Assembly (NCBI GenBank): GCA_964388035.1
Contig: CAYLZE010000114.1
Span: forward strand, 1-16,248
Length of the DNA stretch: 16,248 nt
Reading direction: 5' to 3'
From: an uncultured archaeon
GTDB lineage: Archaea > Asgardarchaeota > Lokiarchaeia > Sigyniarchaeales > SOKP01
This document shows, one piece after another, positions 12,403 through 16,248 of this stretch. The notes below the pieces were generated by a model. That model did not search any database and was not told where the DNA came from. It saw only the letters and a list, made by a program, of their open reading frames with translations. How positions within the stretch are numbered: the stretch's first letter is position 1; every line of letters begins with the position of its first letter. The translations under genes and the position numbers were made by a program.

Positions 12403-13209
12403 ATGAAAATAGCTGTAAGTGGAAAAGGGGGAGTGGGTAAAACCTTAATAGCGGGAACATTGGCAAGATTATTTGCAAAGGACGGATATAGCGTTCTAGC
12501 TATAGATAATGATTCAGCAATGAATTTGAGCTATACTTTAGGTATCAAGGAAGATGTTAAAAAGAAAATCGTACCTATCTCAAAAATGAAGGAAATCATA
12601 GAGGAGAGAGTAGTTATTAAAGGAGCTGGTTCCGGTGTTTATAACATTAATCCTAAAGTAGCAGATATTCCCGATAAATATAAGGTTCCAGGACCCGATG
12701 GAATACAATTATTAGTATTAGGATCGATCGAACAACCCTTAACGGGATGTTTATGTCCTGAAAACGCACTCATTCGAACGCTTCTCTATAATTTATTCGT
12801 AGAGAGGAATGAGGTCGTGATCGTGGATTTTGAGGCAGGTTTAGAGCATTTAGGCAGAGGGACTGCCAAAGGCGTCGATGTAATGCTCGTAATTACAGAA
12901 CCTTCACAAAAATCGCTTGATTTAGCTGCAAAAATAATAGATTTATCCAAGAAATTAGGAATCATTAACATCTTTTTAATAGCAAATAAAGTATTTGACG
13001 ATGCTCAATTAAAGATAATCCAAGAACGTGTTGAAGAATGGGAAGTACCCCTTTATCATACCTTACCATTTGATCTTGAAATAGGAAAGGCAGACTTAGA
13101 AGGTATCCCACCTCTAGATTTCAATCCTCAATCCGAGGCAATCCAATCGATTAAAAAACTATATTCTAAGTTAAAAGAATTAAAAACTCGAGTATTCGAC
13201 ATAGGATAA
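12403..13209 (+). CDS. cooC: CooC-family nickel-insertion ATPase
   Basis: MKIAVSGKGGVGKT deviant Walker A, GCLCP Ni-binding CxC and DFEAGLEHLGRGT. SD AGGAG lies upstream. Confidence 0.93.
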   Translation: MKIAVSGKGGVGKTLIAGTLARLFAKDGYSVLAIDNDSAMNLSYTLGIKEDVKKKIVPISKMKEIIEERVVIKGAGSGVYNINPKVADIPDKYKVPGPDGIQLLVLGSIEQPLTGCLCPENALIRTLLYNLFVERNEVVIVDFEAGLEHLGRGTAKGVDVMLVITEPSQKSLDLAAKIIDLSKKLGIINIFLIANKVFDDAQLKIIQERVEEWEVPLYHTLPFDLEIGKADLEGIPPLDFNPQSEAIQSIKKLYSKLKELKTRVFDIG

Positions 13210-13214
13210 GAAAA

Positions 13215-13463
13215 TTATATTAATTCTGATAAATCAAGATCTTGGTCATCTGCAATTTTTTTCCATTGTTCAATTGCTTCTAAAGCATCGGTTTCATTCA
13301 TCTGTTCAATTGCATAACCTGCGTGAACAATCACGTAATTTCCTATTTTTGGCTCTTGGATTAATGCGATAATTATTTGTTGCTTGAGACCATCAAAATC
13401 AACCAATGCAGTTTTATTGAGACCATTAATTTCTAAAATCTTGCCAGGAATTGCTAAACACAT
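13215..13463 (-). CDS. hypC: Hydrogenase maturation chaperone HypC
   Basis: MCLAIPG N-terminus and YVIVHAGYAI. The true start is the ATG at 13463, because HypC needs Cys2 at the N-terminus; the listed ORF start at 13475 is 4 codons too far upstream. Confidence 0.95.
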   Translation of the reverse strand: MCLAIPGKILEINGLNKTALVDFDGLKQQIIIALIQEPKIGNYVIVHAGYAIEQMNETDALEAIEQWKKIADDQDLDLSELI

Positions 13464-13631
13464 GGTGTGAGGCACTGTATAAGTTTTTATAAATAATTTA
13501 ACATGTGGAATAAATTAAAATTACTTATTATTTCCGATAACCAAAGAAAGAAAAATTTAAATCTTTCTTATTGTTAAAAATTATTTAGATTAGTTTTTTT
13601 TAATCTAAATAAATAGAGGATTTCTATATTA

Positions 13632-14180
13632 ATGTCAACTAATAAAATTAAAATCTTTCCTTCTAATAAGATTCTTTTGTTATTAACCGTAGCTGGTTTT
13701 GTAATCTTTATTTTGATTAATCAATTGATTTTTGCAGCATTAAGTGCAACATATACTACTTATGGTATTCTTGATTTCGAATTTGCTTGGACAAAAGCGA
13801 GAGTACTTACTATTTTTACCGTATGGGGACAACAAGGCATGCTTGACCAGAGAATTGGAGTATATTGGGATTTTCTTTATATTGTAGGATATGTTTCTTT
13901 CATATCAGGATGCATTCTATTGGTCACGCGTCAATTGGAGGGTAAAGTAGAAGGTATTGGTTATAGAGTTAGCGTGTTACCTGCGCTCGCAGGAGTATTT
14001 GATATAATCGAAAATATTAACTTGTTGATCATGATTAATAATCCTATTACATTTCCAATTTCCTTGCCCAGCATTGCTTCAATTTGTGCATTAATAAAAT
14101 TTGCATTATTGGGCGTGAGTATTGTCTTTTTCGTGATAGCAATTATAATCTTGATTTATCGTAAACTAAAAAATAAATGA
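13632..14180 (+). CDS. Hypothetical integral membrane protein (about 4 TM helices)
   Basis: Four hydrophobic segments with intramembrane acidic residues (WDFLY, FDIIEN). GAGGA lies upstream. Confidence 0.8.
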   Translation: MSTNKIKIFPSNKILLLLTVAGFVIFILINQLIFAALSATYTTYGILDFEFAWTKARVLTIFTVWGQQGMLDQRIGVYWDFLYIVGYVSFISGCILLVTRQLEGKVEGIGYRVSVLPALAGVFDIIENINLLIMINNPITFPISLPSIASICALIKFALLGVSIVFFVIAIIILIYRKLKNK

Positions 14181-14516: not shown

Positions 14517-15389
14517 TTATAAACCTAATTTGTCCAAAACTGTTTTCAATCGGGTTCTGTGAAAATTTAGACCAATATCACCGGGACTAATGCCCATGCC
14601 TAATGCAATTAATTCTGTAATATAAAGTATGGGAATATCATAATTTTCATTGAACTTTTTCGATAAATCTCTCTGTTTCGTATCAAATTGCTGGAAGCAA
14701 GCAGGACAATTCACGCAGATGACATCAGCTCCTGCTTTTACTATGCTATCAAGTTTTTTCTTTAAAACTTGATCCCCATGCTCCTCATAGGCGTTAGATA
14801 CTGCTGAACCACAACATAATGATAATTCATCATAGTCAACAACAGTAGCCCCTGTAGCAGCTACAATTTTTTTTAGGTTTTCTGGTCGAAACGGATCATC
14901 GGCTTCCATCCATTCTGCTGGACGCATGTAATGACATCCCGGATGGCATGCAACTTTTAAGCCGCTTAATTGTTTCGTGATTGCTCCTTGAATCTTATCC
15001 AAGTTATCCTTAATCACGTCAACGAAATGTCTCACTTCAATGGAACCTTTATATTCCTTTCCAATTTTCCCTAATTGCTTGTTGACCCGTTCTTTTAGGT
15101 GAGAATCGTGCTTTAATTGATGTTGAACACCTCTTAGAGTATTGGTGCATCCATTACATAAAGAAATGATGGGTTTTCCTTCTGCTTCAGCCATACAAAG
15201 ATTTAATGCACCTAATGCTAACCAAACATCATTATCAAAGCTTTTCATCCCCGTTGGGTCGGGACAGCAAGTAAATGGAGCTTCCGAGGTTATAACTCCA
15301 ATTTTTTCGAATACTTTCCTCGATGCAGCTTCAATAAAAGGAATTCTATTTCCAATGGTACAGCCTTCAAACATTTTATATTCTGTCAT
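14517..15389 (-). CDS. hdrB: Heterodisulfide reductase subunit B
   Basis: Two CCG domains: GC..TCCPDP..LCNGC and GCH..LCCG..NCPAC. SD GGAGG lies upstream, directly after hdrC. Confidence 0.95.
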   Translation of the reverse strand: MTEYKMFEGCTIGNRIPFIEAASRKVFEKIGVITSEAPFTCCPDPTGMKSFDNDVWLALGALNLCMAEAEGKPIISLCNGCTNTLRGVQHQLKHDSHLKERVNKQLGKIGKEYKGSIEVRHFVDVIKDNLDKIQGAITKQLSGLKVACHPGCHYMRPAEWMEADDPFRPENLKKIVAATGATVVDYDELSLCCGSAVSNAYEEHGDQVLKKKLDSIVKAGADVICVNCPACFQQFDTKQRDLSKKFNENYDIPILYITELIALGMGISPGDIGLNFHRTRLKTVLDKLGL

Positions 15390-15402
15390 TATATTTTCCT
15401 CC

Positions 15403-15909
15403 TTATTTTAGCTTCTTATCAGCTCCAATATTTTTCATTAGAGATTGTACTAAATTTACGTCCGGATTAAGTATTTCAGGTAATCCTAACTGCTGTCTTC
15501 TTCGCTCAATCGCGCTTTGAGAAGGAATTGCTTTAGCATTATCAAATATTGCTTTTGCTTGTCCATAAATGAATTCGGGTGCTTTGCCCTGCTCAGCACT
15601 CTTATTTTTCAAGAATGTAAAGATTTCAGTCAATTCTATATTCTGTGGGCAGACCTCATCGCACGTATCGCATACCGTACAGCCCCAGATTGCTAAAGGA
15701 TCAGCTGAAAAAATTGCATCTTTATATCCTAAAAGTGCGTTTAAAATGTTTGCCCTTGGATTGTATCCTGATGTAGTGTAAAAATCGATTGAAACGGCAG
15801 AAACGGGACAATTATCAGTACACCTGCTGCATTGATAACAATATTTGATTAGATCGGAACTAATGTGATGATCCATGACCTGTTTTTTAAATTCAAAATC
15901 TAATACCAT
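15403..15909 (-). CDS. hdrC: Heterodisulfide reductase subunit C
   Basis: Two ferredoxin motifs, CYQCSRCTDNCP and CTVCDTCDEVCP, adjacent to hdrB. Confidence 0.93.
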   Translation of the reverse strand: MVLDFEFKKQVMDHHISSDLIKYCYQCSRCTDNCPVSAVSIDFYTTSGYNPRANILNALLGYKDAIFSADPLAIWGCTVCDTCDEVCPQNIELTEIFTFLKNKSAEQGKAPEFIYGQAKAIFDNAKAIPSQSAIERRRQQLGLPEILNPDVNLVQSLMKNIGADKKLK

Positions 15910-15952
15910 TTTTCTACACTCTTTTTTTTTCTTTCCAATTTATTTTATAAGG

Positions 15953-16026
15953 TATTGGCTTTAACCCTTGCAAGGGTAGTTATATTCAATCCAAAATTTA
16001 TATTGAATATTCATCCTAAGCCAACA
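15953..16026 (-). other. Predicted three-way-junction RNA spanning the vhuU stop codon; candidate Sec-recoding element
   Basis: Hand-folded: UGUUGGCUU/AAGCCAAUA closing helix, AUAUUCAAU/AUUGAAUAU hairpin and ACCCU-UGCA-AGGGU hairpin. Function is not demonstrated. Confidence 0.4.
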
Positions 16027-16163
16027 TTCAACTTGCGGGAGTAAATTTCATTGCCCTCTTCATCAACAACCGTGATGTGAGCTGCACACGATAGTCAGCA
16101 ATCATAACAGCGAACTATCATTTCTAATAAATTTACTACTCCTTCAGGAATGTCTTCACTCAC
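16011..16163 (-). CDS. vhuU: Selenocysteine-containing [NiFeSe] hydrogenase small peptide subunit VhuU (50 aa, U23)
   Basis: GTG start at 16163. Translates MSEDIPEGVVNLLEMIVRCYDC-U(TGA 16095-16097)-LSCAAHITVVDEEGNEIYSRKLNVGLG*. The TGA is at the first ligand of the C-terminal DPCxxCxxH motif of NiFe large subunits. Confidence 0.92.
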
Positions 16164-16189
16164 TTTTTTTATCACTTTTTATTATTAGT

Positions 16190-16248
16190 TTACTTTATCC
16201 AAGGTTCTGGTAATTTCAACCCTTCCAAAGCTTTATCTTCGAAGACTT
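16190..16248 (-). CDS. 3' end of upstream gene, probably hydrogenase large subunit VhuA/MvhA (partial)
   Basis: Open frame from the window edge: VFEDKALEGLKLPEPWIK*, ending 26 nt before vhuU. Identity is inferred from position only. Confidence 0.5.
   Translation of the reverse strand, partial: VFEDKALEGLKLPEPWIK

Follow-up and report, generated by a model that had tools for sequence, protein, structure and literature searches.

A short stretch near one end of a lokiarchaeial contig, in which a reading frame of 50 codons is interrupted by an in-frame TGA, raises the question of how that codon is read and what kind of peptide is made if it is decoded. The window analysed here is the whole of contig C114 (CAYLZE010000114.1, 16,248 nt) of the assembly GCA_964388035.1 (hereafter G000; 5.47 Mb, 33% G+C, 211 contigs, 96.7% complete, 7.3% contaminated), and contigs of this genome are cited below by their C numbers. 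On the minus strand, from 16163 to 16011, translation with TGA taken as selenocysteine (U) gives GTG-SEDIPEGVVNLLEMIVRCYDC-TGA-LSCAAHITVVDEEGNEIYSRKLNVGLG-TGA, i.e., a peptide of 50 residues running ...LLEMIVRCYDC-U-LSCAAH-ITVVDEEG...NVGLG. This bears out the first-pass annotation, which had noticed a 50-codon minus-strand gene missing from the list of open reading frames; under translation table 11, the locus holds no ORF of at least 40 aa. A Shine-Dalgarno-like GUGAU lies 7 nt ahead of the GTG start, and the codon aligned with this start is ATG in relatives. We propose, with high confidence, that the gene is vhuU and specifies, as a separate peptide, the C-terminal part of the large subunit from a [NiFeSe] hydrogenase of group 3c (Mvh/Vhu type) in a member of the Lokiarchaeia (Promethearchaeia), and that its UGA codon 23 would be read as selenocysteine (Sec) by means of a lokiSECIS element (Table 1).

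Table 1. Coordinates of the vhuU gene, its SECIS element and the neighboring genes in the window
Feature	Position	Strand	Remarks
vhuA 3' end	16190..16248	-	Last 19 codons (16246-16190, ...VFEDKALEGLKLPEPWIK) and TAA; remainder lost at contig end
vhuU CDS	16011..16163	-	50 codons and TGA stop; GTG start at 16161-16163; VhuU is best NCBIfam family; kept in relatives
Active-site segment R18-H29	16077..16112	-	RCYDCULSCAAH; C19 and C22 (CxxC) extra relative to RAYDPC of MvhA
In-frame TGA, codon 23, predicted Sec	16095..16097	-	On first Cys of DPCxxCxxH Ni-ligand motif (MvhA alignment)
21-residue extension past His29	16014..16076	-	Last codons also form SECIS helix I; removal by HycI-type protease presumed
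SECIS	15953..16026	-	Sequence, RNAalifold on 60 orthologues, pair counts, single-sequence MFE
SECIS helix I	16026-16018 paired with 15961-15953	-	
SECIS AUGA	16014-16011	-	Its UGA is the vhuU stop codon
SECIS helix II	16010-16002 paired with 15990-15982	-	AUAUUCAAU with AUUGAAUAU; 9/9 bp
SECIS apical loop	16001-15991	-	11 nt, AUAAAUUUUGG
SECIS AA	15981-15980	-	
SECIS side hairpin III	15977-15964	-	G+C-rich, between core and 3' strand of helix I
hdrC-like	15403..15909	-	Two [4Fe-4S] motifs; Pfam Fer4_8; best NCBIfam TIGR03290 HdrC, 77.9 bits, under cut-off
hdrB-like	14517..15389	-	Two CCG domains; Pfam CCG, 94 bits; best NCBIfam TIGR03288 HdrB, 262.5 bits vs cut-off 345
hypC/hupF maturation chaperone	13215..13475	-	Pfam HupF_HypC, 83.6 bits; TIGR00074, 81 bits, above cut-off
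MinD/ParA/CooC-type P-loop ATPase	12403..13209	+	Pfam CbiA; best NCBIfam archaeal MinD, 71 bits vs cut-off 202

The identity of the peptide is indicated by both family models and solved structures. Its top NCBIfam family is VhuU (NF041786, E = 8.5e-15), which is by far the best, with a score of 54.3 bits that lies under the equivalog cut-off of 70. To judge by its name, this model was built on VhuU of methanogens; scores under the cut-off, here as well as for VhuA, VhuG, HdrB, HdrC, PSTK and SelB below, are expected because the models were built on methanogens. A Pfam search with the peptide returned no match, as the peptide is too short. Among PDB sequences the top match is MvhA, at its C-terminus (5odc_F, residues 422-456, E = 3.8e-6). 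The alignment spans the 35 C-terminal residues and includes EDIPEGVVNLLEMIVRCYDCULSCAAHI of the peptide; U23 falls on the first of the two Cys in the DPCxxCxxH motif and C26 on the second. The PDB chains 7t2r_D and 9sw2_F give the same Sec-to-Cys placement, and a solved VhuU chain (9sfi_M, 27 residues) also matches (E = 0.0011) and ends at the aligned His region. Hence, the earlier naming of the peptide as VhuU holds in alignments with VhuU and with the C-termini of MvhA alike.

This hidden gene is real, and its conservation is far beyond chance. A vhuU peptide with exactly one TGA, always at the same codon, is present in 36 of 40 related genomes, namely in 23 of the 24 from its own family and in others from elsewhere in the order; all close orthologues have the TGA at codon 23, and Cys (as DCC) occupies the site in the locus L052. 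A scan for the motif D-C-TGA-L-S-C-A-A-H in one genome per prokaryote species yielded at least 118 stretches. Among the matches listed, nearly all are Asgard metagenome-assembled genomes, with Promethearchaeota (the NCBI name for Lokiarchaeota), Hel-, Thor-, Hod-, Hermod- and Atabeyarchaeia represented, and the cultured Promethearchaeum syntrophicum MK-D1 is found with them. In every Asgard stretch that was read, with one chance bacterial match left out, vhuU is a short, separate ORF in which LLEM..RCYDCULSCAAH is almost invariant, and an in-frame stop precedes the motif by no more than about 52 codons. Homologues with Cys occur naturally, both in the split form (L052, the protein entries P0020 and P0027, and others) and in a fused form (P0037, a large subunit of 492 aa). 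G000 itself has a second copy of vhuU at C90:1601-1750 (locus L048, C90:1-1800), which is 90% identical and has both the TGA and a SECIS; part of the stretch past this second SECIS reads N. The match in Testudinibacter was rejected as a chance match. Two contigs filed under Deferrimicrobium (L071, DATKTP010000196.1) and Nanopelagicaceae (L085, DATKTW010000156.1) carry a typical Asgard vhuU with a lokiSECIS and are probably mis-binned Asgard contigs.

The set of genes for decoding Sec is complete in G000, comprising tRNA-Sec, PSTK, SepSecS, SelD and a SelB/EFSec-like factor. SepSecS (C6:4476-5777, 471 bits) and SelD (C47:26194-26994, with an in-frame TGA of its own) score above their cut-offs, PSTK (C18:6576-7301, 153 bits) lies under the NCBIfam cut-off, and the SelB/EFSec-like factor (C59:5069-5956) attains 237 bits vs a cut-off of 242; for both of the latter, the Sec-specific family is by far the best. 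The tRNA-Sec gene is at G000:C6:4052-4205 on the plus strand (L021:1468-1621), about 270 nt upstream of SepSecS, and displays a 9-bp acceptor stem, a G discriminator, CCA and a UCA anticodon. It contains two introns, one of 30 nt in the D arm and one of 31 nt in the T loop, and in-silico removal of both leaves a 93-nt RNA that ARAGORN calls tRNA-SeC, with a 9/4 fold, a 7-bp D stem and a 4-nt D loop. For the tRNA-Sec of Lokiarchaeum, the available text of the primary report mentions only the 31-nt intron in the T loop (PMC4989117). On the unspliced genome ARAGORN reports no tRNA-SeC, and the Rfam tRNA-Sec model at default settings finds none either, its best weak match (25 bits) being mis-aligned because of the two introns. 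Parts of the two inserts can pair together, and it is this pairing that Rfam takes for the acceptor stem. When introns are allowed, ARAGORN finds only 22 tRNAs genome-wide, including an intron-containing “tRNA-Pyl(cta)” and “tRNA-Stop(tta)”; these two calls are probably artefacts of the intron-rich tRNA genes of Asgard archaea.

Taken together, the conserved TGA, the lokiSECIS described below and the genes of the Sec machinery favor the recoding of UGA as Sec that the first-pass annotation had inferred; the checks it named came out in its favor wherever they were run. Three other ways of reading the codon have to be set against this. One is that the TGA is a true stop, so that all that is left would be a degenerate relic, or a gene for a peptide of 22 residues, followed by a meaningless frame. 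Translation with table 11 does end there, as does the database entry P0035 at ...RCYDC; however, the 27 codons past the TGA are conserved as protein in more than 100 genomes, inclusive of the invariant LSCAAH that supplies the second Ni ligand and the His, the Cys homologues align straight through the site, and a SECIS with covariation follows downstream, making this reading extremely improbable. Less probable still is a sequencing or assembly error concealing a TGC or TGT, since separately assembled genomes of dozens of species have the same TGA, as does the copy on C90. As the TGA is conserved together with its flanking peptide and forms with Cys exist, we exclude that the codon is a stop or a read error and that vhuU is a pseudogene. 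The remaining alternative is insertion of Cys or Trp at the UGA, whether by suppressor or near-cognate decoding or because the genetic code has changed. Many database entries do show W, and Cys works at the aligned position in homologues, but TGA acts as an ordinary stop elsewhere in the window, terminating both vhuU itself and the ORF 13632-14180, and therefore has not been reassigned genome-wide. Moreover, the genome has a dedicated tRNA-Sec (UCA) with SepSecS, PSTK, SelD and a SelB-like factor, and the lokiSECIS stands exactly at its published place; hence, we judge decoding as Cys or Trp to be very unlikely.

The element that would direct Sec insertion was sought in the 3' region of vhuU. 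In the available text of its description, the lokiSECIS consists of AUGA, a 9-bp stem, an apical loop of 11 nt with an A-rich start and a G at its end, and then GA; in the version associated with VhuU, AA replaces GA, and in VhuU.1 the AUGA provides the UGA stop (PMC4989117). The segment 16014-15980 of the window fits this published description exactly, with a loop, AUAAAUUUUGG, that is less A-rich than the consensus AAAAA...AG. A strict lokiSECIS pattern occurs at 6 sites in the whole genome (5.5 Mb), 4 of which lie directly behind vhuU or Sec-vhuD genes. The other two sites, G000:C9:106082 (+) and G000:C38:10999 (-), lie behind no gene that was examined and may mark other selenoprotein genes. 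An Rfam search of 15000-16248 gave no SECIS family and only chance snoRNA and CRISPR matches (E > 4); apparently, no Rfam model recognizes the vhuU lokiSECIS.

The vhuU SECIS is predicted to fold as a three-helix junction, the closing helix of which uses the last sense codons of the gene. RNAalifold returns three helices when the 3' regions of 60 distinct vhuU orthologues are aligned; across this alignment, 95.8% of the cells of the full structure are paired, and both partners vary in 11 of its 21 pairs. The real alignment exceeds all of 500 shuffles in every measure, and as a control, shifting the 3' partners by 1-3 columns brings pairing down to 22-57%. Helix II has both-sided changes in 8 of its 9 stem pairs. 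In helix I, the Val-Gly-Leu codons GUUGGCUU (16025-16018) pair with AAGCCAAU (15961-15954): the Gly codon ends in C or U, which covaries with a downstream G or A (UA 34, CG 21), and the Val codon ends in U or A, which covaries with A or U (UA 50, AU 8). The pairs of hairpin III are near-invariant and thus provide little evidence either way. In single-sequence folds, the SECIS elements of three Sec-vhuD genes (G000:C4:~111927 (-), C45:~4569 (+) and C57:~18980 (-)) adopt the same three-armed shape, i.e., a closing helix, a K-turn stem-loop and a small side hairpin. In the available text of PMC4989117 and PMC11227280, figures aside, there is no mention of a lower helix or a third arm.

The split nature of the large subunit is apparent from the upstream gene, whose stop lies 26 nt ahead of vhuU. 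The 19-residue vhuA tail in the window is the same as the end of the 434-aa VhuA of the relative G003 (L049:5593-6897), which has RICGIC at its N-terminus, covers positions 3-417/418 of the VhuA model (488 bits, under the NCBIfam cut-off) and closes with ...LNLPDPWID, stopping before any CxxCxxH. Accordingly, orthologues and these 19 residues suggest that the vhuA of G000 likewise lacks the C-terminal motif, in keeping with the prior expectation of a large subunit without a CxxC of its own. The start of a vhuA (18 codons) is found at G000:C46:1-54, adjoining vhuG (C46:58-1380), and C114, read on its minus strand, shares its first 55 nt, which belong to the 3' end of vhuA, with C90, read on its plus strand. 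The two paralogous clusters have near-identical copies of vhuA; therefore, the assembly broke there, and vhuA fell into the gap. A true absence of vhuA, as suggested by PF00374 (which finds only an unrelated large subunit, on C28), was rejected in view of this assembly break.

Three arrangements of the surrounding genes were observed: hypE-hypD-vhuG-vhuA-vhuU-hdrC-hdrB...hypC for the cluster of the window, vhuG-vhuA-hdrC-hdrB-vhuU on C90 of the same genome, and vhuG-hdrC-hdrB-vhuA-vhuU at L051 in another family of the order, where the VhuU peptide is nearly identical to that of MK-D1. VhuG is the best NCBIfam family for the small subunit, under its cut-off. The vhuA end, vhuU, hdrC, hdrB and hypC thus stand as first read; the gene called cooC in that reading codes for an ATPase that scores under every cut-off and, matching only generic CbiA/ParA/MinD P-loop families, cannot be named CooC on these scores. 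In L049, an ORF of 268 aa lies at the place matching this ATPase, the likeness being one of size and position only. Between hypC and hdrB, the ORF 13632-14180 on the plus strand, which ends in TGA, codes for 182 aa with no Pfam or NCBIfam match. The genes hdrA and vhuD are outside the vhuU cluster, on other contigs: the genome has four hdrA-vhuD tandem pairs with in-frame TGAs, several Cys pairs, 14 FlpD/MvhD matches in all and many HdrA homologues, so that MvhA(U), MvhG, MvhD, HdrA, HdrB and HdrC are all encoded in G000. A gene for a HycI-family protease is present at G000:C33:28221-28547.

We accordingly envisage the following scenario. The sequence of the locus suggests that the ribosome reads UGA codon 23 as Sec. 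It would be directed to do so by the eukaryote-like lokiSECIS, whose start coincides with the UGA stop of vhuU itself, 80 nt past the Sec codon, and would use the tRNA-Sec, PSTK, SepSecS, SelD and EFSec/SelB-like factor encoded elsewhere in the genome. By analogy to the respective families, Sec23 and Cys26 of VhuU would bind the Ni-Fe center along with the two N-terminal Cys of VhuA (RxCGxC), and the 21 residues past His29 are likely to be cut off, as in the maturation of [NiFe] hydrogenases. VhuA, VhuU and VhuG might then pass electrons from H2 to the HdrCB encoded next to them, probably via the VhuD-HdrA pairs with Sec; such an electron-bifurcating Vhu-Hdr complex is suggested by the gene content.

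A simpler device is conceivable, in which Sec-VhuU takes part in no flavin-based bifurcating VhuAGUD-HdrABC, VhuGAU-HdrCB alone serving as an oxidoreductase between H2 and a disulfide or other acceptor; we consider this rather unlikely. Equally doubtful in our view is its corollary, that electrons go from the long VhuG (~440 aa) straight to HdrC. For such a device speaks the fact that vhuG, vhuA, vhuU, hdrC and hdrB keep together with neither hdrA nor vhuD in all three arrangements, as does the length of VhuG, which exceeds the 286-position VhuG model by about 150 residues and matches it in three stretches. Asgard archaea, moreover, are not known to make CoM-S-S-CoB, which leaves their Hdr without an assigned substrate. 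Against it, hdrA also stands apart from hdrCB in the operons of Methanothermobacter and Methanococcus, the genome supplies four Sec hdrA-vhuD pairs in addition to several Cys pairs, and the closest structures are the solved MvhAGD-HdrABC complexes (5odc).

Sec-VhuU of this kind is already known, the locus being an orthologue of a published form. The first-pass annotation had mentioned Sec-VhuU as reported in Lokiarchaeota, and such a report exists: as far as their available texts go, the split form, the SECIS with its AA variant and its overlap with the stop, and the Sec hdrA-vhuD pairs were described in Lokiarchaeota by Mariotti et al. 2016 (PMC4989117), and Huang et al. 2024, surveying more than 200 Sec-using Asgard genomes, recorded FrhA/MvhA/VhuU in 68.3% of Sec-using Asgard archaea (PMC11227280). 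As in VhuU.1 of Lokiarchaeota, there are about 50 codons, a single Sec, an AUGA that provides the UGA stop, a 9-bp stem, an 11-nt loop and AA, and the genome likewise encodes VhuA, VhuG, HdrB and HdrC, with Sec in hdrA-vhuD pairs; judging from the part of that description at hand, nothing essential differs, and the gene is an orthologue in another lokiarchaeial genome. With the VhuU of Methanococcales (NF041786, 9sfi_M) it shares the form of a separate selenopeptide giving C-terminal Ni ligands to a truncated VhuA. It differs from the latter in its eukaryote-like K-turn SECIS, that of methanogens being described in the text available as of the GAA_A-bulge type (PMC4989117), in the two extra Cys of RCYDCU, in the clustering of the gene with hdrCB and in its score of 54 against the cut-off of 70. 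MvhA of MvhAGD-HdrABC (5odc_F) is likewise of group 3c and Hdr-linked and aligns over its C-terminal 35 residues, but is one polypeptide with Cys, whereas the segment here is a separate gene with Sec. The fused P0037 from the same clade (JGI “F420-non-reducing hydrogenase large subunit”) has ...LLEMIVRCYDCCLSCSAH and a tail, with the same extra Cys; unlike vhuU, it is unsplit and has Cys for Sec. Beyond these parallels, modest additions are made here, namely a three-way SECIS in which coding nucleotides take part, the RCYDCU with its extra CxxC and the tRNA-Sec gene with two introns beside SepSecS.

The active site of the Asgard versions, RCYDC(U/C)LSCAAH, has a CxxC (C19/C22) directly before the Ni ligand that is absent in MvhA and is found in the Sec, split-Cys and fused-Cys forms alike. 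This CxxC has no mention in the available text of PMC4989117 or PMC11227280. We give about even chances to a combined proposal, namely that the vhuU SECIS is a K-turn three-way junction that goes beyond the published core stem-loop, its closing helix being formed by the Val-Gly-Leu codons and a segment about 60 nt downstream with the G+C-rich hairpin between them, and that the C19/C22 CxxC of the Asgard proteins could act as a redox switch or as a selenenylsulfide partner. If the three-way junction is true, the strongly conserved ...NVGLG end of the tail, which is presumably cleaved off, would be kept for the sake of the RNA and not of the protein.

The main import of these findings lies in annotation: standard gene callers miss vhuU, cut it at ...RCYDC or apply a code in which TGA is Trp, and the hydrogenase therefore seems to be without two of its four Ni ligands. 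Besides this, the published picture for the Lokiarchaeia is confirmed in one more genome, and the three-helix SECIS and the extra CxxC beside Sec are small additions. The public protein entries P0002-P0036 mostly have W at both TGAs (DCWLSCAAH...GLGW followed by read-through), because the gene callers used the code with TGA as Trp, or are cut at ...RCYDC; only one of them is named, as a “coenzyme F420-reducing hydrogenase alpha subunit” from JGI.
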